Shown here in pieces: positions 10,957 to 53,525 of a stretch of DNA of 64,000 nucleotides (positions are counted from its first letter, which is position 1; the number at the start of each line of letters is the position of its first letter). The stretch comes from Gonapodya sp. JEL0774. Its lineage: Eukaryota. Where the stretch lies: NCBI GenBank assembly GCA_027604505.1, contig JADIIX010000120.1, forward strand, positions 1-64,000, written 5' to 3'. The notes under the pieces are model-generated. The model was not told the DNA's origin, did not search any database, and worked only from the letters and a program-made list of their open reading frames with translations. The translations under genes and the position numbers were made by a program.

Positions 10957-13757
10957 TTAAGTCTGCTTAATTTGTATCCATTGTCCAATGCTCGGAACAC
11001 CATCGTTAGTAATGTACAGCAGATAGTACCCAGCTGGTACCACCTTGTTATCTGGCGGGGTGGTGATCTGAAGACTCGTCGTTGACACGACAGTGATCGG
11101 CGCCTAATGAGTATGAGCATGCTTCGTTAGTGACTGGCCCGCACCTGCGAAGTGCATCTTCTGCTTACCAACACAAGTCGTGTGCTCATGTGTAGCGCGT
11201 GTGTCACGCCACCAGGGAAGTAAAATGAGACCTTGAACGACTTAGTTACGTCAAAAGTCCCAGTTACGGTGAACTTGTCCCCCGGGTTCACCGCAGCTGG
11301 TGCTCCAGTGAACGTCGGTCTTGCTTTGCCAGTCAGTAGGTAGGGAGGGGTAAATATTTCGTTACGGTACTCCGTAGGATATATACCAGTTGTGTTTGGT
11401 ATGCTGTACGGATTGGACCCTGTCACAAGTACGGTTGCATCGGGCATCAACATAGAAATGGAGTGATCTGCGAAAGTACTAGATGTAAGAAAATGCGAGT
11501 ATTCGGAATTCATTTGAGAACTCCAGACTTACACATTCGTGCAACTTTCGATGCTTGGAGCGTGAACCACCGCTTCCCTTTGGGTGCCCCCGGGATAAAC
11601 AGATCGGGAGCAAAGACTGGATTTTTGGCGACTTCAAAGCCTTGGTGACCGTTCTTGGCACCATTTATGAACAGTATTGAGCCATCGGGGAGCAGCGTGG
11701 GATGCACCATGACTCGGTATTGCGGTAACTTTTCCGACATATCCCAAATGGGTTTCGAGAGCTCCGGAGTAACTAACAAATTCCGAGGTGAGCGTTCGCA
11801 GAATTGATTGATGACAACTTCAAATGCTCACTGATTCCACAGGTATCTGTTGCTGGCTGTTCAATCCACAGATCGGGATGTCCGCCACCGCAAATCATAA
11901 CATGGGAGGTATAATTGTCAGCAAAAGATATTGGTAACAGAGTTGCAGCACCAACAGCGGGGTAAGTGCGAGGATTAATTCCTAGATGATGCAGTACGAG
12001 TTCAGATTGGCAAACTCCAGTAAGGTCATCTCACACATAGTCAACCGACCGGGAATATCTGGTAGGTACTTCACCAACTTGTTCGCAACTGGATCAAGTA
12101 TAATACTGGTCATACCGGCCATAATAAACAAGTTTCCACTTCGCAGAACGTGCACATGCGGATACAACTGGAACGGTACCACGTTGGGGGCATTCAACAA
12201 ATCGAGTTGGAAGGTACCAGCTGGTTGTTGTGGATAAAATTCGTAGCTAGGTTCATTTGTGAGTCGGTTGACGACGAGACCCTGATCGTATTGGCGGATT
12301 CCGCCGATGACAAACTAGTTCCAAACACACGGGGTTAAGTGTCGCACCTCTTTTGTACCAAAGAGGATGCAACTTACCATCCTGCCGTCAGGTAAATTGA
12401 CCATTGTTGGATACCATCGTGGCTTCTGCAGTATGCCGATGGTCGCACCCTCTGCCCAGTTGCACGAAACTGTGATGTTGTCGCAGGGTCTCGTGAGAAT
12501 CCTGATACCTTCGTATCCCGTCGCAACAGTCACATCATTGTTCTCTGCATGAGAAAGATTTGTAAGCCGATGAGAATCCCGCTGGCAAGGAGTAATTCCA
12601 CTCACGAAGACTTCCTCCCACAGATATTATCGACCCGTCGGACATTTGGCCCACTCCCGAGCAAAATGGGTTCGTCTTCAAATCAAGTGATTGCAAGCTC
12701 AATGTTGCAGGGTTCCACTCCGTACTGACTGCGTAGCGGCCATCAGGCAAGAGCGCCTCGGTGACAACCTCTTGCTTCGACAACATAATCACGTTATTTG
12801 AGTTGGGAATCAGGATGGCGTGCATTGCAGGTACACCACTTCGTCCGCGAAGGGCAAATGTGCCTCCATTTGTGAGGTCGGTGGGGGATGCAAAAGCATC
12901 ACAACCAGATTGGCAACCTTCGCCACACGCGAAGTATGAGTCTCCGCAAAAGCCGTCGGCACCACAACAAGGGGTGTATCCATTTGTCAGATTGCTTACA
13001 CCGGTCGCTTATAAAGGCAAAGTTCTATGTGAGAGAGGCCGGACAAAGGGGACAGTCACCGTGACTCACGGCATGTGGCACCGCCAAACTCCTTGCCACA
13101 CCTTCCAGAGAAAACCGCTGGAGTGGGAGAGGCAGTCGGTGCGGATGTGCTTGCAGAAGTTGGGCTAGATGCAGCGGTTGACGTGGTGGCACTGGCGTTT
13201 AAGTTTCCCGATTGCTGTCCCGGATCCGTTGTTGCCTGGACAGTGGTTGTCTGTAGTCGGGTAAAGAATACAGCCATGAGGGCGATACTAGCGACAAGTA
13301 GCGCGATAGAGACTTTTGGCAGGAGCGAGTGGGTATTCAAGCAAGAGTGTTTCCAAAAGAGGCCGGCAAACTCTGTGAAAGTAAACATTGACTCACTGCC
13401 AACGAGGATCCACAGTGTTCTGTTTCCTCTTCGAAGGGATGCACTTCTTGGTAACGATTGTCCATTTAATAGTTTTGGCTGAATTATGTCGTCTGTATCA
13501 CGAACGCTATGTGTCGATTGTCGCAGACTTCCTTCAAAAGGTTTGGACCCCTCCCTCTCGTGATGGTGGTCAAGAAGGTTAACCCCTTCCTGTGGCTCAT
13601 GCGAATGAAGACGCGAGTGGCGTCGTTCATCGACCGTTCTGATTGTGATTGGCTCCAACGCAATGGCAAGATTTGAATCCGCCAAAGGGGGATCGGCAAG
13701 TGGGGCATCGGCAGACGCATCAACCAGAGGAGTGTCTTCAGTGTTTTCCGACGCCAT
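10957..13757 (-). CDS. Copper radical oxidase (AA5_1, glyoxal oxidase-like) with TM anchor and CBM18/hevein domain, paralog 1
   Basis: NPFCSG (Cys), RWYPT (Tyr), RMYHS (split by an intron), THALHMSTRL (His), C-terminal PAGYYLLY..DGVPS. Hevein motif RCG..GGATC..CCGADGFCG...CG.GCQSGC. Hydrophobic helix near 13260-13320. Confidence 0.9.
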
Positions 13758-27252: not shown

Positions 27253-30200
27253 CTAGACAAGCTTAACCTGAACCCAAGCACCTGTGCTCGGTACTCCATC
27301 GTTAAGAATGTAAAACAAATAATAACCAGGTGGAACCACATTGTTGTCAGGGGGAGTGGTAACTTGAATCGTGGTTGAGGATTGTGCGACGGTGGGCGCC
27401 TGGATGGACGGAAACTTGTTTCAGTCCCTGAACGAACTACTTCAGTGCATCTCGAACACTCACAAACACTAGTCGGGTGGACATGTGGTTGCTGTTGTAT
27501 AAGGTATGAGACGCAACCCGTAAGATATCCATGGCCAACTGCAAAGCAAGCAAGACACATTCTACTAACGAGTGAGTAACTCCGCCTGGGAAATAGAACG
27601 CTGCCTGCAGCGACTTGGTGTTATCAAATGTGCCTGTTATCGTGAAAGCATCCCCTGGATTCACGGCAGCTGGTGCTCCAGTGAAAGTAGGTCGTGTTTT
27701 TCCAGTGAGCAAGTACGGAGGAGTCAAAATCTCGTTGCGGTACTCTGTAGGGTATGGGCTTGTGTAGTTAGGATCTAAATGAGGATTTGATCCAGTGACA
27801 AGGACCGTGGCATCCGGCATCAACTGGGATATTGAGTGATCTGCGTTTCAGCCAGCCGCAGAAGAAGGCAGGAATAAGCCGCTGTGTGCACCTTCATTCT
27901 CACTCTCTTTACTCACACATTCGCGGGATTGTGCTAGCTGCCATGGTGTACCATCGCTTGCCCTTAGGTGCGCTTGGGAGATAGATATCCGGAGCAAGGA
28001 CAGGTGTCTTTGCAGACTCCCATCCTTGGTGGCCTTGTGCGGCACCGTTGATGAAAATAATACTCCCGTCAACGAGTATGGTCGGGTGCACCATGACGCG
28101 TGCTTGTGGAGCGCTTTCGGACGTGTCCCAGGTAGGGTTGGCAGCCTCCGGCGTAACTTTTTAGCGAGGACAGAATTAGACGAGTATGCCAGAACCACTC
28201 CAGAGTCCACCATTACCCACTGATTCCGCAGGTATTGGTGCCCGGTTGCTCAATCCACAAGTCGGGATGACCACCCCCACAGACTATGAAGTGAACCGTG
28301 TAGTTGTCAGCGTAAGTAATTGGGAGCATGGTGCCTGCGCCAACGGAGGGGTATGTGCGAGGATAGATGCCTGCGACAGTCAATAAGCTTTCTGTGTCAG
28401 ATGTACTGCGGACACCACAACCAAAAGTTCACACCAACCCGGCAAGTCGGGCAAGTTCTTGACGACAGCGTTGGAGACAGGGTCTAGAATGATGCTACTC
28501 ATTCCTGCCATGATGAAGAGACGTCCTGAACGCAAAACGTGGACGTGCGGGTACATTTGGAAGGGAAACACGTTGGGAGCTTGGAGGAGGTCCAACTGGA
28601 AATTGCTCGGAGGATTCGGAGGGTAAAACTCATAGGTCGGGTTCTTTCAAATGGAAAGTGTGGCATTGATCGTCCAGTGCGGAAAGAGCAAACGTGTGTA
28701 AGTGGCAAAGAAGTGTGTTTACTGGGTTGACTTGCACGTGATCATTCTCACATTTGTTTGCTTGTCTGTTTGCAAGCCCTGATCATACTGTGCGATGCCG
28801 CCGATAATGAACTGTGGCAAACGAAGGAGACGAGTGATTAGTGGCCGTGTCTGCACATGTTCAGATTGTCGACACACTCTGACAGACAAAATCATCTCTC
28901 GAGAAAATATAATCTTCGGGAGAACTAGCGTCTTGCGGACAAAACACGGATTGAGAGAGCGTCCGGGATTCAAAATCATCCCAATCCACGACGCCTCGCT
29001 CGTTGTTCCCACATTGGCTCGCAGAGGGATCTTGCACAAAGATTGAACGTACCATTCTACCGTCTGGTAGGTTTACAATGGTTGGATACCACCTCGCACT
29101 TTGGAGGGCGTTGGATTCGACCCAATCACAAGTCACCGTTACACCATCACACGGGCGGGTCAGGATCCGAATGGCTTGGTAGCCAGTGGCAATGGCTGGA
29201 TCATTGTAGTCTGTTTACAGTAGTCGCATACAACAATGAGCACGTGATTATGCGAGGGGACAAACAGTAAGAGAGGTCAACGTACTCAAGGATCCTCCAA
29301 CTGAGATGAGTCTTCCATCAGGCATCTGGCCAACGCCCGAACAGAAGGAGTTTGTGGTGAGGTCCAACGGCGTCAGATCAAGGGTAGTGGGATTCCATTC
29401 GGAGGAGTAGGCGTATCGGGCTAACAGAGCGGATGAGTGGTGCATGTGAAGGGTCACACACATCAGGGCCTGTTCTAGTTTCGACTCACTGGCTGTGATG
29501 TTCAACATTGTGGATAGCTCTTGCTTCCCAAGCATAATGACGTTCCCTGTGAGTGGAACAAGCATGATATGCATTGCTGGCACACCTGAAGTACCGTGAA
29601 CGGTAAAAGTGCCCGAGTTGGTGAGGTCGACTGATGACGCAAAGGCGTCGCATCCCGACTGGCAGCCGGTGCCACAGGAGATGTAAGAGGATCCACAGTA
29701 GCCATCAGCTCCACAGCTTTTTGGGGAGAGGTCAAAGTTGAGTGAGATGATACGGATGCTATAGGCCATACACCACTCACCAAGGGGTATATCCCCGCGT
29801 CAGAGAGTTAGCAACGGTAGCTGCAGCGAGTCAGCTCATTGACCTCAACGCTCAACGTAAATGCGACTTGAGAGTGGGAACTCACGGCAGACAGCCCCTC
29901 CGAAATCCTTTCCACATCTTCCTGAAAAGACTGACGATGTCGTTGTCGTATTTACTCCAGATCCAGATCCTGAGCCTGTCGTTGTTGACCCAGTGCTAGT
30001 TCCCGACGTTCCCGACGTCCCTGTTCCCGTCACTGCGTTGGAAGCTGCGATTGTTGTCGAAGCGGTGGAGGAGGTCTTCAATTTGAGGATGAACACAATG
30101 ACCAGCGAGAAACTGGCGACGAGAAGAACAGACGCAACTGCAGGTTCCATGCAGCAGTAAGCCAGGCAAGATATCAGCTGCATGATGACGTTTGACTGGA

Positions 30201-42084: not shown

Positions 42085-42234
42085 GACTATGATTATCTCT
42101 TGATGCGGAAGAAGGATTGATGGCTGGAGATGGGGGAAAGAAAGAAGTTGGGTTCTGGCACCTACGTACATCCTTCAGAATCGCGGTACTGATCGGCTCA
42201 TCCTTCCCAGACTTCCGACCTTGACACAATAAAA

Positions 42235-43988
42235 ATGGCGTCTCCAATTCCCGCTGGATTCCCTGATTTGCGACACGAGAGCCTGCTCAATGTCAGAGGG
42301 AAAGTCTGCCTTGTCACGGGCGGCGGAACGGGAATCGGCAAGAGTTCGTGTGACTATGTTCGAGGCTGACACCCCTTCCACGACTCTGACTGCCTTCCCA
42401 AAAGTGATGGCTACCGCACTCGTGCGAAATGGTGCCACTGTATATATTTCATCCAGAAAACTACCGGTTCTCGAGGCAGTCGCCAGGGAGATCACGGCCC
42501 TCGGTCCGGGTACCTGTTACGCAATACAGGCTGACCTTTCCAGTAAGAAGGCCTGCTATGATCTTGCTGCAGAACTGGCAAAGCGGGAGGATAGGCTGCA
42601 CCTGCTTGTGAACAACTCAGGAGCGGTGTGGGGAGCTGTGAGTCCGAATAATGATGTTCAGCGTCGGTCTCCCCTAAACTTTTGTTCCATTTGTGTTTGG
42701 TTATGCATTCTCCTGTCATTTTTTTTGCGCATCCAGCCATTGGAAGATTATCCTGAGGTGCAAGGATGGACCAAGATCATGCAACTCAACCTGATGTGCA
42801 TATTCTATCTTACCACCGCGTGAGTCATCCTTGCGCTCATTCTCCAGGACGTATCCCTCTCGCTCCTCTCATCACTTTACACCCGTGCCGGAAAACATCA
42901 TCACCGTCCCCCATGCTTACGAACCCGGAAACAACAAACACTCAGATGCCTCCCTCTGCTCGAAAAGGGCTCACGTGGTCCCACAGACCCCGCCCGCGTC
43001 GTAACCATTGCCAGTGCTTTGGGAATCGTACCTCACGATACATAGTGAGTATGCCGTCACACTGCGGACCCACTAGCTGCCCTCTGAAAACGGAAAATTT
43101 CCGCATCTCGCATCCTACCTTGCGCTTCACCTCAACCTGCTTCCCACGCACCCAAGTTTGGGAATGGACGGAACCACTAACGTGTCTTACAACGCGACAA
43201 AGGCCGCGGATTTACACATGACGAGGCATCTGGCGGGAATGCTCGCTAAACGGGGCGTGGTGAGTGTTTTGCTGAGCACCGGGGGTCATTGGGGATGGAG
43301 CCAACAAGGGGGATGTGACGGACTCGACTCGGTGTGAGTCCCCGGTGGGATGATCGAAAATACATACAAATCAACTGGTTTGTCTTCTTTTGACAATCTT
43401 CTTTGGCTTTTGCTTCATTTGCGAAACCCACCCGCCCCGTCTTCTCCACCAAGACCGTGAACACCGTTGCACCTGGAATAGTACCCACGAAATTCGTTAA
43501 GTTTGGAATGAGCCAGAATCAGCGATTGTTGTTGAAGGAGTATCCCATGGGTAAGAGCTTCCATACTTCCCGATTCTGTTTCGCCTCGTTGTAGTATCCT
43601 GTCTGCGGCGTGTGACGGAGCCACTCCATTTCGTTTCCCCTCTCTGCTCTTGATCACGACAACACCATGTGACCGCATACACGGTATTTACGTCTTACTT
43701 TCATTTCACTCAGGCCGATTCGCGGTGCCCACTGACGTTGGAGGGACGATACTCTTTTTGGCATGTGAGTTGCTTGTTTTTTCACAGCAAAGGGGTGGGA
43801 CGTCGTGGTTTGATGATCCAATCAACAATGGCGTGCGCCGTTCACTGCCCACTCTGATTCCCTTGTCATCTTGCCTCACCCGGCATCCAACCCAAAACTC
43901 AGCCAAAGCATCGTCGCATATCACGGGTGCGACACTCGTTCTTGACGGAGGATGGAGTTTAGAGGATTCTGGATACTCGCGGCTGTAA
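42235..43988 (+). CDS. Short-chain dehydrogenase/reductase (classical SDR, RhlG-like)
   Basis: LVTGGGTGIG, LVNNSGAVWG, catalytic YNATK, TVNTVAPG, ITGATLVLDGG. Confidence 0.9.
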
Positions 43989-44239
43989 TTACTTCGCTGT
44001 TGTTGAGGGGGGGCGAGGGGTTCCCGCATGGCGTGCACGAATGGAGGATTCATGGTTTGAAACAAACAAACGCAATATTCGGATTGTGAAGGGAGATAAT
44101 CAAGTAAACCATCTTATTATGCACTCGAAAAATATGCATCTTCGCATGGTACTATGGCATTTGATTCCGGTGAGCACCAGAATCAACGATAAGATAAACT
44201 CCACAACCATCACGGTCCATAATCACCAACATCGAAGCC

Positions 44240-47191
44240 ATGTCTGATACGAAACCCCCCCTCACCTCTCGCACTCCCCTCTTCCCACAGGCGCCCGTAT
44301 CATCCCGCGCTCAAGCGTCGCTGTCTTCTGAAAACCAGCTTGGGCAAGGACGAGCCCGAGCTCAGGCGAACGAGTACGACGAGCTGTCGAACCCTTCGGG
44401 AATAATAAACTTGGGCGTCGCTGAAAATAGACTTATGTGGAAGGATATCCTGGAGAAGGTGCTTTAGCGAGGGGTTCCTCCCTCTCTTCCGCACCATTGG
44501 TGTTGTCTAAACCCTCGCTCACGGTTCCGCACATTCACGATTCCTTACAAGCTCAACTCAGGATTCGTCTACGAATCTTCCCATCTCCAGTACCCGCCCT
44601 ACTACGGAACCGAAGGCCTTCGCACCGCGATCGCCGCGGTCCTGAATTCGATCCTGGTGCCTCTGCCCAATGCCAAAGTTTCCCCACAACATATAGTCGT
44701 CACCAACGGTTGTGGTTCAGCGATTTCAGTTCTGGCCAGCGTTTTGGCCGATCAGGGTCAAGGCGTTTTGGTCCCTGCGCCGTATTACGGGGGATTTCGT
44801 GAGTTGGTTGGCGACCGCAATTACTTGTTGCATTATGAGTCCCCTCTGAATGCTGATGGAGACTATTTGACTGTAGATTCTGATTTGGAAGACGAATCAG
44901 GCGTGAAATGCATTGGTGTGAACTGTGACCCCGAAGACAAATTCCGCCTCAGCTTTGACAGACTGGACCAAGCGTAGTAAGTTGTCGGAGATGGCCCGAT
45001 GTGATCGTCGAGTTGTGAGTCCCGACTGCAACTCAACCTTAATCATCCTCAAAACATGGCGCTCTGCCTTTGTCGTGTCCAGCCACCGCGCAAGTGCAAA
45101 GGGCGTCCACGTCCGCGCCCTCCTAATCTGCTCTCCGAACAACCCTCTTGGCAACTGCTACGCTCGCTCAGAACTAGTGGACATGATGCGATGGTGCGCA
45201 AAGAGGCGAGTCTCTTTCGTCAGCGATGAAATCTATGCCGGGAGCTGGTTCGGCGGCTCAGACGGTAAGTGATCTTAAACAAGTTTCTTTGTTCCTTCAC
45301 GGGTCGATCTTGTGGTGACAGCTCCTCATATGTTTCTATGAATGGCCGATCTCCAAAAATACTCTGTGGAACGTTTTATCCAAAACCCACTCTTCAAGAG
45401 ACCAACCGAGAAGATCCCCTCCACCCTTTTGTTTCTGTCCTTGCAATCGACTCAGAGGCGGAAGCCGGCCTACCAAAGGAAATGGTCCATGTTCTGTGGG
45501 GCCTTTCCAAGTGAGCACGATGACACTTGCGGGTGACATCTCTTTTAGGCTCATTGGGGGGCGTGTCTCATCTACCCGATCTCCAATTGCTCAGAGATTT
45601 TAACATGAACGGATTGAGAGGTGATCAAAGTGAACTAATTCTTGGTATCGGGCCACAGAGGATCTCACAATTGTAGCGCTTTTGCGCAGTCGGAGCCATT
45701 CAATCCCGGAACACGCTAGTCATCGCCGCATGCCGCAACCTGGCAAAGTTTCACGGTACGCTATCATGCGTCTCAAACCTCGTTTTGACCCATGTCCCGT
45801 GGGTTCTGCGCGGCTTCGATAACCTTTAGGCCCCCCTCTAGCCATAGCCCACCCTTTGCACACCTTGCTGACCACACTCCTCTCCGACACTTTTTTCCTC
45901 ACCACACACACGGAGACCAATAAGAACCGTCTGAGAGACATGTATGGGCGGATAACTGGGTGGTTGAGGGAGCGCAAGATTGGCTTCCTCCGCGCCAACG
46001 CGGGATTCTTTCTGTGGGTAGATTTCCGCAAGTACGTACAGAAGCTCGGCGGAAAAGTGTTCAGCTTGCAAGGGCCAGTCGGAGAAGAGTATTACGAGGA
46101 CTTCTTTGATGTAGGTAGAGCGGAGGAGGTGGAATGGAGTGTCAATCTTTCTCCGTGAACTCGAGGTGAATGTTTTGGGCGGATAATCTTTTCACACAAG
46201 CAATCACTGCTTAGGCTCCACTCGATCGATCTGCGGAGCGGGAATTGGCGGGTCGCTTTCTCAATGCCGGGGTGTGAGTTGCTTTTGTCGCCTTCCCTTC
46301 AATCCAAATGTTGAAAATTCTCCCGATCCCTGCACCGTACAGCTACGTTGCCCACAGCGAGGCGTTTTACAGTCGCGATATGGGTGGGAGTCTCTACAAG
46401 TGTTGATTGCAAAAGAAGCTTTGTCTCTGTTCATAAGGTCCTGACAATTCTGTTCTCTCCAAGGATGGTTTCGTATCGTGTACGCGACCGACGATTGGAG
46501 GAAACTGGAACTTGCTCTCTCCCGCATGTGGACTGTTCTGCAGAAGATCGATCTCGAAGTCGACGACGTCCCGCCCGCATTCGCCGAACCATCATCGTCG
46601 TCGTCGTCGTCGACTCTGTCCCCTGTTCTCCTGTCAGCGAAATCAGATCCCCTTACGTTTTCGCACTTGGGAATCAATGCCACTGATCCCAGCCTTCTCG
46701 TAGACTTTTACACGAACGCTCTGGGCTTCACAGTTACAGACACAGGGTTCTTGGATACACCAACCGGTCGTGTGCATCTCACCTTCACGAGCCGATCACC
46801 CAAAGATCACCACCAAATTGTCATCGCTTCTGGAAAACCGAAAGACGTGCCCTTCAACGTTGTCAATCAGATTAGCTTAGACGCGCACAATTTGCCTGCC
46901 ATACGGAGATTCGCACGCCGATGTGTGCAACATGGAGCCACCGATGTGCAACCAGTCACACATGGGAATGCGATCAGTGTATATTTGAGAGATCCAGAGG
47001 GTAATCGGATAGAGATTTTCATGGACACGCCCTGGTACATCAATCAACCGCACCGTGTACCAATCCCGGACTTTGATGCAAAGACCGACGTGGAGGTTAT
47101 GAAGTGGGTGGAGGAGCATTCACGTGAAAATGAAGGATTTGTTGATCGGGAGTTGTGGGTGGACAGGATGAAGGAACGGATGGGGGTTTAA
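44240..47191 (+). CDS. ACC-synthase-like PLP enzyme (aminotransferase class I/II) fused to a C-terminal VOC/glyoxalase-dioxygenase domain
   Basis: GIINLGVAENRL, PAPYYGGF, SPNNPLG, SDEIYA, WGLSK/DFNMNGLR/VG (PLP Lys), AGFFLWVD, GWFRIVYA. The last exon (46464-47191) continues without a stop through a Ser linker into FSHLG..FYTNALGFTVTD..HHQIV..THGNAISVYLRDPEGNRIEIF. Confidence 0.88.
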
Positions 47192-47514
47192 GAATACTGT
47201 TTTGTATTTGATGTGTGCCACCCTACCTTATGTGATATCTAGTGACAGTTGGAGAGGGTCCGAGGTTCATGCACTTTATTTGGCACAAAGTGGGAGTCTA
47301 ATAGCGTTGGATGCACAGACTCCCAGTAGCGGCGGGCTTGACATATTCCCAAATTGGGGGAGAGACCAATTGCGAATCTCAACTTCCATCGTCCCGGCCT
47401 TTCAACCTCTTCAGTGGAGATTCCCCGCAATCCTAAGTCAGCACCGTATTTAAAGTAATTTTATTGCGAAGAAGCACATAGAGCTCAACGTGGATTAAGT
47501 TTGAGGAAAGACAT

Positions 47515-50290
47515 ATGTTGACCTGTTTGGTGACCTACCGGACGTGCACCGCTGAAACTATCCACTTACAGCATCTGAGTTTCGAACGGTTTCCGATGGC
47601 GACCAGTGCTCTTTCCGAGAACGGTAATATTCCAAATATCGCGAACATTTATCCCTCTGCGCTATTAGATTTCATCTCCTTCATTTTCCCCTGATTTGAG
47701 AAGAAAACGCGACATCACTTGTAGAGCAATCTGATCGAAATGAAACGCCGATGGAACTCAATGAAATCTCTGAACCTGACTCCGAACTCAGCGATCTCCA
47801 ATCACGCATAGCGCGCCTTCCTATCCCCTTCGAACTTCTTCTCGCTGGTTTGTCATACCCTCGACCAGCGCCGCCGCTGTTTGTGGAAGTCGCGGACGAC
47901 GGCACGACCAGCGACGAGGTGGCGGAAGATCTGGTGAAACAAGGTATAACCACCGTGTTTACAAAGCTGTCGCTGCCCGTAAGTGTCGAGGCACCAGCGT
48001 CAAAGTGGTTCCACGTTGAACTCGGACTACGCCGGTGCAGGGTCAAGGCCTTTCAGACCTTTCTTTCTTAAAAAGTTTCAAATATATTCAAACGCTTGAG
48101 TTGCCGGGGAACGGCATCACCAGTGGGTGATGCTCAACTGTGCTCAAGAATGCTTCCGGGGAGTGGCTGAAGATATTGTCTCCAGGTGCCGAACCCCTCT
48201 CCCATCTGCCTCACCTAGTCCATGTTGACCTTTCCGGCAACCGCCTTTCCACTGTCCTCGAGGAAATTCACCCGATAACCCCTTCCAAGTCCATCCCTCC
48301 TCTGGAGTCAGTAGACTTATCCCGAAATCAGATTCAGAGAATAGGAGACCTGTCCAGACACAGATATCTCAGAAGCTTGACGCTTGAGCGCAATTTAATA
48401 ATGGGGATTGAAGGACTGGATGGGTGCAAGTACCTTACGGAGCTGAGGTGCGTTGTCGCATCATTCACGGAATATTGTAGTTTCGATTAAATCCCGTGAG
48501 CTTACGTCAGACTCGGACACAACGGAATAAGCAAGCTAACGGGACTTGATAATCTTCCTTTGACAAAACTCGATCTGGTGAGTTTCCCGACTCAAAGAAT
48601 AACCTGATCTTACGTCTGGTAGCGACCGAACGCCCGGCTCCGCTTGCAGCGTTGGAACCGCCTCACTTCACTGTCCGGCCTCTCTCGGCTTCCCAACCTT
48701 ACCCACTTGATCGCTCCTCACAATGCTGTGTCCTCGCTCTCCTCATTATTTGACTGCTCCGTTACCAACCCACGCCTATCCCACCTTGACCTTGCCCACA
48801 ACCTCATCGCCGACATCGCTGAGCTAAATCCCCTCAAAGATGCCGTGATGTTGAGAGCATTAGTGCTAAAGGGCAACCCCGTGGCGGGGAGAGGCGATTG
48901 GGGGGACGGCGATGGGGATCAGGGTGATGGAAAGGGCGGCCCTCCACGGTCGAACGCCTCCCGTTCCATATCTTCGTCTACAGGTCAAATTGCATCGTTC
49001 TCCTCACTACACCAATCTGCAGTAGCTTTACACACGGTTGGGTCTCGGCCCCCATCTAGCTCCACCATTTCTCATTCAAAATCACCTGTCCCCGCAGACA
49101 CCTATCGCCTCTCCGCAATTTTCATGCTCCCTTGTCTCACTTCACTTGATGATCACCCTGTGACTGCCGAAGATAAAGTCGCCGCAGTGAATCGCTTCGA
49201 CCCTCCCCCCGAGGTGCGAGCAGCCGTAGCGCACGCAGAGCGGACTGCGAAGCAAGCGAAACTCTACGCCCGTGTTCGGCACACCGATCTGATGCACCAC
49301 CGCAGCGGGAGATTGAGACCTGTTGTACTGTGCGGGCCTTCTGGTGTTGGGAAGAGAACACTTGCAGCGCGACTTGCCGCGGAGTCCCCTCATGTGTTTG
49401 GTTTGGCTGTTTCGCACACGACGAGGGCTCCAAGACCTGGTGAAGAGGATGGGGTTCACTACAGATTTGTTGGAAAGGCTGAAATGGAGGAGATGGTAGA
49501 GGCTGGCGAGTTTGTGGAAAGCGTGACTTTGTTCGGAAATATGTACGGAACAAGTGTGGGGGAAGTGGATCGTGTGGCAGAAGAGGGCAAAGTCTGTGTG
49601 ATGAGCGTGGAAGTTGAGGTACGTGCGGGGCCTGTATGATCGTCTCGCTTCAAACACTGACTCCAGTGCTACTGCCTATCACCGAAACTCCAGGGAATTG
49701 CGGCTTTACGCCGCTCCACAATCAGGCCCCGATACGTTTATGTCGCGGCACCTAACATCGAAGCCATTAGTACACGGCTACAGAACCGACAACGGACAAT
49801 GCACTCGTCACACATCTCACGGTCAAGGACTCAAACGAAGCTGAGCTCGGCGGGACACTCAAACGTGCGGAGCGAGGATGACACAGCCTCGCTTATGCAC
49901 GGACTGCAGGAACCACCGTCCTTGCCTAAGTCAGAAGAACCGGGAACAGTAGCGGCTGTGGAAGAAGAGATACGAAGATGGATGGAGAATGCTGAACAGA
50001 GTCTGGTTTCCGCAGAGAAGCTCGGCATGAACTTCTTTGATCTGGTTGTCATTAATGACAATGTGGAATTGGCGTATAGACAACTCAAGGTGGGTTTCAG
50101 AACACCTCCGTTCCTTCCTTGCGTGTTGCTGCTTCTCCGTATGAGATTGTCCAATTTTTCATAGGATTTCGCCCTTTTGGCGTGTAAACCTTCAGCATAT
50201 GATGACATAGATTTTAAAATGGACGAGAATGAAAGTGTAATCGAAGTGGGACAGCATGTTGAAGATTCGTGGGAAGAAGATAGGCAATGA
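47515..50290 (+). CDS. LRGUK: Leucine-rich repeat and guanylate kinase domain protein (flagellar)
   Basis: SDS22-like LRRs (LVHVDLSGNRL, LESVDLSRNQI, LTHLIAPHNAV, LSHLDLAHNLI) and LRR cap LTSLD..EDKVAAVNRFDPPPEV, followed by GK PVVLCGPSGVGK..SHTTRAPRPGEEDGVHYRFV..YGTS. The start may be 47596. Confidence 0.85.
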
Positions 50291-51998: not shown

Positions 51999-53525
51999 TC
52001 AAAGACTAGACTTCTGATCTTCAACTCCTAGTCCAACGACAAATCCCTCGAGGGCGTTGTAATCTCCAGCTAATACTCTCTCGACAATCTCCTTAGACCT
52101 TTCAGGTCCAAAGCCTTTCTCAACTTTTATCCAAGCTCCGCAAACTCGCATGGTCCGATCCCACATATCGCGTTGGCGACGAGCGAACTCTGCACCTCCA
52201 AGCTCTTTCACTCGCTCTCCAGACCACCCAGGAGCGAAGAAAAAGTGGGAATTCGGGGGGCGGAACGACGCTACTGAGGGTACAGGTGATGACCAGTGTG
52301 ACTTCGTGTTCAAGATTACATTTATCAGTGGTTCGGGCAATGTTGAAGGCTTCAAAGTTCGCTCACCGCCCCCACCCTCACAGTTTGTCGGACCCCTGAC
52401 AAACCATATCGGTCGTAAATTGCTTTGGTGACAGAGTCATCGCCTGCCATGTCCACAACCACGCATCCGCCTTCACGAATAGGAAGGTCCTCTGCAATTT
52501 TGGGACTGCGTCCGAGAGGGTGCAACGGAACAGGCAAAAAGCATTATACACACGTGTTTCTCATGCATTACACCCGTCAGAATGCGACCCAACCCACTAG
52601 GTGACGACTGTGTCGAAGCAGTTTCTAAGAGTAGATTTCACGAAATCCAGATTTCTCTGCGAAGTGATTCCGATCGCTTCAGTCGTTGGATCCAATTGTT
52701 TGAGACAGAAACCGAGCGAGTAGGCAGTCTTAGAGGACGCAGATATGATAACCACGGTTTTCGTGGGAGGACCAGTCGGGGAGGAGAAGTTGTTTTTTCC
52801 CAGAACATAGTCCGCAAGAAGATAACCAGTGCTCCAAAGGCCGCGAAGCTAATCAAATCAAGCGGGATGGTCATTGCTGTAAGAAAAGGTGCCCGAACCT
52901 CTAGATGTGCGTACCAGCATCCCTTGATCCTCAAGCTCTTGAGTGGTTGGTGTAGGCAAGTCTCTCTTTGAAACTCGTGAATACGTCAGGTACACTAAAC
53001 GGTCTTCTGGCAAATCATCACGGCGGACAGTGAAAGCCGATGGGGAGGTCTTCGCGGGATTGGGGACCAAGATGCAGTGTGAAGCACAAGGAAAGTAGCC
53101 CCACAACCTTTCTCCTACTTCCACGAGAGGAGAAAGGGAGTGGGTAACGGTAGCAAAGCCCCAAACTGGCATCTTGCCTAGAGCTTTCTGTTTGTCCCCT
53201 TCCACAGGGAAGAAGTCAAAGTATCGAAGAGATCTTCCCGTAGCGAGATATGACACATTGTTACTGGTGACACCGAACTTGTCAATTCGAACGAGTACTT
53301 GAGGTGGGAGCGAAGGGACGACGAGTTTGTCCGTTCGGAAGCAATTGTTCCGAACAACCACGGAATGGAACGCATTCACATTACATTTCATTTCAAAGTC
53401 GCTCTCTCTGTGTCATACATGGACTCACTTTCTCCTTGCTTCAGAGGCCCAAGTTGAGTGGTCCGAACTTCAAACTCGCGTGGATCGGCTTGCTTGAAAA
53501 TGAACTGCACGGATTTGACTGTCAT
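51999..53525 (-). CDS. DUF2855-like protein
   Basis: ILVRIDKFGVTSNNVSY..G..LRYFDFFP..MPVWGFATV..GERLWGYFP, VDMAGD, FFFAP. Exon 1 MTVKSVQF..GE from 53525. Confidence 0.7.

Follow-up and report, generated by a model that had tools for sequence, protein, structure and literature searches.

Extradiol dioxygenases of fungi are insufficiently characterised, and enzymes of the vicinal oxygen chelate (VOC) type have been flagged for study (PMC12420386). A bacterial enzyme pertinent to them is HcdB, reported to be a 3-(2,3,5-trihydroxyphenyl)propionate 1,2-dioxygenase (PMC6222606), encoded within the hcdABC operon of Pseudomonas mandelii 7HK4 that serves the breakdown of 7-hydroxycoumarin (PMC6222606; PMC7913881). 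HcdB in whole cells cleaved catechol, 3- and 4-methylcatechol, 3-methoxycatechol and caffeic acid, and the activity was wholly lost on aerobic purification (PMC6222606). The 1-aminocyclopropane-1-carboxylate (ACC) synthases (ACS) and their relatives are enzymes dependent on pyridoxal 5′-phosphate (PLP). In the plant enzyme AtACS7 the substitution Q98A spares the lyase activity but cuts ACS activity to 6.93%, while D245N abolishes the lyase activity; no ACC was produced by ACS-like proteins without this Gln (PMC8580319). The fungal protein GliI bore an initial ACC synthase annotation but is a PLP-dependent C–S lyase acting on cysteinyl conjugates (PMC10086836), and three ACS candidates of F. 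graminearum were reported to be without ACS activity (PMC6746940). Here we describe a gene of the fungus Gonapodya sp. JEL0774 in which domains of these two kinds are joined in frame. It is located at positions 44240–47191 on the forward strand of a 64,000-nt stretch of DNA (contig JADIIX010000120.1, positions 1 to 64,000), the whole of which is called the window.

An ACS-like domain and a VOC domain in one reading frame

The gene comprises 11 exons separated by ten GT–AG introns of 69–134 nt, and in our splice model encodes a frame of 682 amino acids (aa). All of its features lie on the + strand. Exons 1–4 occupy 44240–44458, 44552–44798, 44877–44976 and 45083–45264, exons 5–8 occupy 45399–45510, 45595–45620, 45690–45755 and 45842–46110, and exons 9–11 occupy 46215–46273, 46343–46383 and 46464–47191. 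The ACS-like domain (PLP class I/II; 44240–46555, aa 1–471) is built from exons 1–10 together with the start of exon 11. After intron 10 (46384–46463; 80 nt, phase 1) the 728 nt of the final exon are uninterrupted. Starting at the GWFRIVYA strand, the chain forms the last ACS helix and passes into a 32-aa Ser-rich linker (46556–46651, aa 472–503), the poly-Ser run of which arises from a TCA/TCG trinucleotide repeat. It then continues as a whole VOC domain of 179 aa (46652–47188, aa 504–682), and terminates at a TAA stop codon (47189–47191).

The join is present at the DNA level. The ACS frame has no stop codon, so a normally spliced ACS transcript would read into the VOC domain; positions 46464–46700 are free of stops in the fusion frame, and the sole ATG upstream of the VOC domain lies at 46526, within the last ACS helix. 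Weighing on the other side, the fusion is known from a single assembly, and stop-free windows of 32 codons are common in the local non-coding DNA (384 of 1556). An open linker is thus weak evidence taken alone, and the case for fusion rests on the absent ACS stop together with the absent VOC start. The corresponding NCBI gene, HDU93_001001, has a final exon that is 100% identical and its 720-aa model makes the same join, as a prediction from the same DNA and hence no independent proof. That model retains intron 2 (44799–44876) in frame and differs in splice sites also at 45621–45689, 45756–45841 and 46111–46214; our 682-aa model matches the ACS alignment better. Pfam detects Aminotran_1_2 (E = 2.9e-42) and Glyoxalase (E = 8.6e-12) in the NCBI model, and the two domains score well above their cut-offs (PF00155, 145.6 bits against 19.7; PF00903, 46.4 bits against 20.6). 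A sequence-only reading of this DNA had proposed an in-frame fusion of an ACS-like PLP enzyme, through a poly-Ser linker, to a complete VOC domain of ∼180 aa, and it was right on each count.

Two further features are found in the linker. A pyrimidine-rich, acceptor-like site lies within 46615–46646, and there is a CTG at 46631, where family members start.

The fold of the VOC domain and its predicted iron site

Modelled with AlphaFold2 (mean predicted local distance difference test score 94.4, predicted template modelling score 0.86), the VOC domain adopts the paired βαβββ fold of the VOC superfamily. In a fold search it is matched by glyoxalase I (1f9z; Z = 12.0, root mean square deviation (RMSD) = 2.5, 119 aligned residues) and L-DOPA dioxygenase (Z = 11.4, RMSD = 2.4, 122 aligned); the ranks of the glyoxalases, L-DOPA dioxygenase and others fall within about 1 Z unit and assign no function. 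The two-domain extradiol dioxygenases are missing from the top 50 VIA rows of the search. Catechol 2,3-dioxygenases, through their catalytic domain, give the best alignment to the family profile.

Alignment to catechol 2,3-dioxygenase places the metal-ligand positions at His5 (46664), Gln73 (46868) and Glu121 (47012), with a second sphere of His53 (46808), His104 (46961) and Tyr111 (46982). The motifs SHLG (containing His5) and RIEIF (Glu121) had already been proposed as ligands and are retained. The other two proposed, HHQ and THGN, match histidines of the second sphere instead, and the residue that had been overlooked is Gln73, in the motif NQISL, which takes the third ligand position. The site therefore differs from the canonical 2-His-1-carboxylate triad of type I extradiol enzymes, its second His being Gln73. 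Nor does it have the second carboxylate of glyoxalase I; in the pairwise alignment to 1f9z the position of that ligand, E. coli Glu56, is occupied by Ile. The fused domain keeps all 46 of the 46 invariant columns of alignment A1. By analogy with enzymes of this topology, two subunits of a homodimer would together make up the site.

The position of the second His is variable in the family, being Gln in 124, His in 17 and Ser in one of 142 rows. The 17 rows with His, set beside the 124 with Gln, offer a natural series in which to test the replacement of His by Gln at the iron site of an extradiol enzyme.

Relationship to HcdB and its operons

The closest relatives of the VOC domain are proteobacterial, with identities of up to 57%. 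Among the 120 listed of 544 matches identity is 48–56%, and those named by taxon are Betaproteobacteria. Neighbourhoods were counted in the best 80 of 500 confirmed bacterial genome loci. An FAH-family hydrolase is present in 57 and an MhpA-like flavin adenine dinucleotide (FAD) monooxygenase in 53, both together in 44, and an IclR regulator in 51. This make-up matches hcdABC as that operon is described in PMC6222606. The hydroxylase and hydrolase context is a property of the bacterial relatives and not of the fungal locus.

Around a Pseudomonas locus the VOC family is present in 26 of 401 genomes searched, and in nine of these 26 loci the majority of the published primers fit, arranged as hcdC–hcdB–hcdA. 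One of them, L091, keeps the operon order with 0–2 mismatches in five of the six hcdC/hcdB/hcdA primers (2/20 and 0/18 for the hcdB pair), and its products of 21.2 and 30.9 kDa compare with a reported 20 kDa band and 31.2 kDa protein (PMC6222606). The fused domain is homologous to the L091 VOC protein over its full length (37% identity over 178 aa, E = 3e-43). Eight site residues are identical in the fused domain and the VOC proteins of loci L090 and L091, and the His/Gln/Glu set with its accompanying His, His and Tyr is present. As HcdB orthologues carry the Gln and whole cells with HcdB cleave catechols, Gln at the ligand position is compatible with meta-cleavage. The VOC domain therefore belongs to the HcdB family and is predicted to be a catechol ring-cleaving extradiol dioxygenase. 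It would accordingly not be a generic isomerase or lyase handling ACC, vinylglycine or an enamine, the family being one of ring-cleaving dioxygenases from proteobacterial aromatic-catabolism operons.

Several observations weigh against too close an identification with HcdB, or with a shared pathway. L091 is a primer-matched orthologue and not HcdB itself. The HcdB rows form a clade of their own (support 99/98) that contains no Gonapodya rows, so that orthology in the narrow sense does not hold, and the monooxygenases beside the closest relatives have a median identity of 38% to the HcdA orthologue (52 of 80 loci matched). The substrate would consequently be some substituted catechol, not necessarily that of HcdB. 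An ACS-like gene was found beside the bacterial relatives in none of the 80 loci, and a further 61 bacterial loci gave a single weak ACS-like match (22%). In the window, no FAH hydrolase, FAD monooxygenase or other aromatic-catabolism partner was found among the 76 open reading frames (ORFs) scanned, which were picked from 174 of at least 110 aa, plus one shorter.

Other arrangements of the VOC family were observed. A separate clade (P0259, P0266, P0434 and P0441) is fused to an FAH hydrolase, P0434 having Glyoxalase and FAA_hydrolase domains; a Picozoa protein among the cluster members of this clade suggests independent uptake by another eukaryote. The metagenomic proteins P0242 and P0243 (416–423 aa) are tandem duplications of the VOC domain.

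Copies in Gonapodya and their origin

At least four copies of the VOC family are present in Gonapodya (20 of 150 representatives looked up). Besides the fused copy there are stand-alone proteins HDU93_001231 and HDU93_000226 in JEL0774 and KXS09509.1 in G. prolifera. All four group in quick trees, with Shimodaira–Hasegawa-like approximate likelihood ratio test (SH-aLRT) values of 96 (142 rows) and 95 (70 rows, a hand-picked subset of the 142). In a careful tree they form one group (98/71; 96% of 200 bootstrap trees), nested among proteobacterial and metagenomic rows. The trees omit 76 representatives covering <150 profile positions, none of which has a Gonapodya protein as best match.

The G+C content at third codon positions (GC3) of the VOC segment is 0.54. 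This lies within the range of the window (0.47–0.63; 0.47–0.62 in five other stretches) and below the bacterial median of 0.81; just 3 of 80 bacterial genes have GC3 ≤0.60. Bacterial contamination was considered, and is ruled out by the GC3, the intron-rich flanks and the tree.

The domain was likely acquired from proteobacteria. The grouping of the four copies points to one old transfer rather than contamination, and one old transfer with later duplication would be the simplest reading. Against it, the SH-aLRT for Gonapodya monophyly is only 71 and the bootstrap had yet to converge; all Gonapodya branches but that of the fused copy (0.57) are long, at 0.94–1.31. The fused copy is moreover 56% identical to bacterial proteins and 39–45% identical to its paralogues, and because of this two separate transfers are still conceivable. 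The stretch 43000–49000 yielded neither informative repeats nor transposon ends.

The ACS-like domain is likely a C–S lyase

The best match of the ACS-like domain in the PDB is AtACS7 (7dlw, E = 2.9e-44); tyrosine aminotransferase is matched at E = 7.4e-10. In the alignment the PLP residues are kept as Glu62, Tyr152, Asn209, Asp237, Tyr240, Lys287, Arg295 and Arg444. Box 2 is altered, with Pro88–Pro89 aligned to Gln98–Asp99 of AtACS7. The Gln expected of a true ACC synthase is thus replaced by Pro88; Gln occupies this position in only 5 of 103 aligned rows. The equivalents of AtACS7 Asn217 and Asp245, required for lyase activity, are kept as Asn209 and Asp237, and since these are invariant in 103 of 103 rows they do not single out lyases. 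From this pattern of residues the domain is likely a cysteine C–S lyase, and ACC synthesis is unlikely. A detoxifying lyase, as suggested earlier, is a plausible role for this half of the protein.

On the other side, the Gln98 rule derives from plant enzymes, a Penicillium citrinum ACS has been reported to be active (PMC6746940), and the domain might yet serve as an aminotransferase. The nearest Atlas cluster is automatically named 'putative aminotransferase tcpI' (0.90, 162/256 features), which is a lead only.

Rarity of the fusion

No second ACS–VOC protein was found in length-gated searches, a 50% representative library or the Atlas, within the word and length limits of these searches. A search of longer proteins with the last exon gave two matches from 3247 candidates, the fusion itself and an AcrB/aldolase/VOC chimera. 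PF00903 occurs in none of the 119 other ACS-like matches (120 listed of 185), none of the 149 other representatives exceeds 423 aa (150 listed of 850), and 30 of 30 Atlas matches carry PF00155 alone. A degenerate pattern written for the C-terminus of the Gonapodya ACS-like domain had no exact match in metagenomes, where the last exon matched 35 loci at ≤53% identity.

The G. prolifera orthologue (P0123; 54% identity, 496 aa) appears unfused as annotated. We do not count this as evidence, since the annotated C-terminal tail comes from translating the last exon in another frame: of the last 32 positions 21 fit the JEL0774 frame, where the shuffled mean is 11.7 and none of 2000 shuffles reaches this value. 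The catalytic Arg strand is also missing from the public model of P0123. In the paralogues P0124 and P0127 the chain comes to a normal end beyond the last ACS helix.

No paper on an ACS–VOC fusion or on Gonapodya VOC dioxygenases was found in a literature search that left subscription journals mostly uncovered, in keeping with the earlier statement that no characterised fusion of this kind was known. The main text of PMC12420386 names neither Gonapodya nor HcdB; its supplements on VOC dioxygenases may list these genes. Both domains are of known kinds; their architecture and the HcdB-type family of Gonapodya were not found in the literature searched.

A different join is present in Geranomyces variabilis. 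The 930-aa model P0223 (HDU87_003054, KAJ3179098.1) has DIOX_N and 2-oxoglutarate (2OG)-Fe(II) oxygenase domains joined to an ACS-like domain with Gly at the Gln98 position. The oxygenase is of the superfamily of ACC oxidase, making this a second chytrid join of an ACS-like protein and an oxygenase. It is a single-member cluster and may be two merged genes.

Genomic neighbourhood

The neighbours are ordinary eukaryotic genes, encoding a methyltransferase, a short-chain dehydrogenase, a leucine-rich repeat (LRR) and guanylate kinase protein, DGAT, CDC50 and adenylate kinase. The short-chain dehydrogenase gene (42233–43990, + strand) ends ∼250 nt upstream of the fusion gene, and the LRR and guanylate kinase gene (47700–50164, + strand) lies downstream. 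Farther downstream is a DUF2855 gene on the − strand (52002–53412). Pieces of galactose/glyoxal oxidase-like genes are found at 11130–11528 and 29251–29799 (− strand), with GO-like_E_set above its cut-off and Glyoxal_oxid_N below.

Discussion

The interpretation that we somewhat favour is that a native C–S lyase and an acquired catechol dioxygenase lie in one chain with loose coupling or none, and without channelling. Three points speak for it, namely the singleton status of the fusion, the low complexity of the linker and the fact that bacteria do not pair the two functions. An hcdB-like gene would have entered the Gonapodya lineage once and then duplicated, giving at least three copies in JEL0774 and one in G. 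prolifera. One copy would have landed at the 3′ end of a native ACS-like gene that lost its stop codon, so that the dioxygenase would be made from the promoter and start codon of that gene. By β-elimination the PLP domain would turn cystine or cysteine S-conjugates into pyruvate, ammonia and either a thiol or a persulfide. The VOC domain would bind Fe(II) through His, Gln and Glu, and use O2 for the meta-cleavage of substituted catechols from decaying plant matter. Gonapodya grows on submerged plant debris. Lying side by side, the domains would at most share their expression, with perhaps a supply of thiol to an oxygen-labile iron site.

Closer cooperation between the domains can be envisaged. 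A two-step disposal of plant phenolics, where a GliI-like lyase would free thio-catechols or supply a persulfide reductant and the acquired dioxygenase would open the ring, is the boldest reading, and an unlikely one. Somewhat less probable again is a tightly coupled detoxification, in which the PLP domain would release a thio-catechol from a cysteinyl-catechol and the attached dioxygenase would open the ring before it could re-oxidise. The cysteinyl-catechol would stem from plant quinones that had been trapped by glutathione and then trimmed. Fungal ACS-like enzymes do cleave bulky cysteine S-conjugates, as GliI exemplifies (PMC10086836), HcdB takes many substituted catechols (PMC6222606), and the fused copy, with every invariant column intact, is the least diverged of the four in Gonapodya by branch length. 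Set against tight coupling are the singleton status of the fusion, the low-complexity linker, and the bacterial operons, in which the VOC family lies beside a hydroxylase and a hydrolase and not a PLP enzyme; in the literature searched, no paper was found that brings its elements together. It is also doubtful, more so than either form of cooperation, that the fused protein is absent or a minor form, with the VOC domain produced by alternative splicing or by initiation at ATG 46526, or that the assembly went wrong at the repeat. The acceptor-like site at 46637 has a pyrimidine fraction of 0.85, compared with 0.45–0.75 in the ten modelled acceptors, the donor of intron 10 (46384) is preceded by an ATG and shares its phase with candidate acceptors at 46637 and 46646, and in the single assembly a trinucleotide repeat stands right at the junction. 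Splicing from 46384 to 46637 is a real possibility, and would yield a VOC-bearing form without the catalytic Arg strand of the ACS-like domain. Yet the ACS frame is open, the repeat extends over only ∼30 nt, and the VOC DNA is Gonapodya's own by codon bias and tree. The candidate acceptor has no branch-point motif, though five of the ten modelled introns lack one too.

Two further possibilities would change the chemistry of the PLP domain. It is very improbable that it is an aminotransferase or deaminase of a catecholic amino acid such as L-DOPA, feeding the keto acid to the dioxygenase. The class I/II fold, the presence of tyrosine aminotransferase models among the sub-threshold NCBIfam matches and the VOC topology shared with L-DOPA dioxygenase are in its favour; yet the sequence is far nearer to ACS than to tyrosine aminotransferase, and the Z score of L-DOPA dioxygenase is tied with those of glyoxalases and other VOC proteins. 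We give scarcely any credence to the route that the sequence-only reading had raised, in which ACC from the PLP domain would be converted to ethylene or another product at the VOC domain. Plant ACC synthases are the closest solved structures, the equivalents of ACS Glu61 and Tyr100 are kept and one fungal enzyme, that of P. citrinum, is reported as active (PMC6746940). Against this, both Gln98 and Asp99 are replaced by Pro and Arg165 by Ser, and the VOC domain belongs to a catechol ring-cleavage family whose bacterial operons contained no ACS-like gene in 80 loci. ACC oxidases, moreover, are enzymes of the 2OG-Fe(II) fold.

Gonapodya thus has a small family of bacteria-like HcdB-type dioxygenases with an unusual predicted iron site of His, Gln and Glu, and the fusion locus provides a handle on the role of fungal ACS-like proteins. 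It is also a test case for the idea that a C–S lyase might feed or protect an oxygen-labile dioxygenase to which it is fused. If the two-step scheme were true, an early-diverging aquatic fungus would have a VOC-type meta-cleavage route wired to sulfur metabolism; if the domains are uncoupled, the locus is a clear, if modest, example of a host gene capturing a transferred one.

Comparison with known systems

In the C-terminal domain of XylE (PDB 1mpy) the catalytic site includes His153, His199, His214, His246, Tyr255 and Glu265. All of these positions except His214, which becomes Gln, are kept in the VOC domain of the fusion. It differs from XylE also in having one domain and not two, and scores 32 bits against an NCBIfam cut-off of 320.

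The PLP domain resembles the GliI-type C–S lyases in being fungal, PLP-dependent and of a kind first annotated as ACC synthase (PMC10086836). GliI lies in toxin biosynthesis clusters with a non-ribosomal peptide synthetase, whereas none was found among the scanned ORFs of the window, and no VOC fusion is reported for the type. With AtACS7 (7dlw) and the lyase-only PpACL1 (PMC8580319) it shares the fold and the PLP residues. Its Pro–Pro in place of Gln98–Asp99 is the pattern of the non-ACS members described there, and it has an extra C-terminal dioxygenase domain. The closest parallel to that dioxygenase is HcdB (PMC6222606), like it a single VOC domain of ∼180 aa with a His/Gln/Glu site accompanied by His, His and Tyr. 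HcdB belongs to an operon, the partners of which were not found among the scanned window ORFs, while the domain described here is eukaryotic, belongs to a neighbouring clade and is carried behind a PLP domain.

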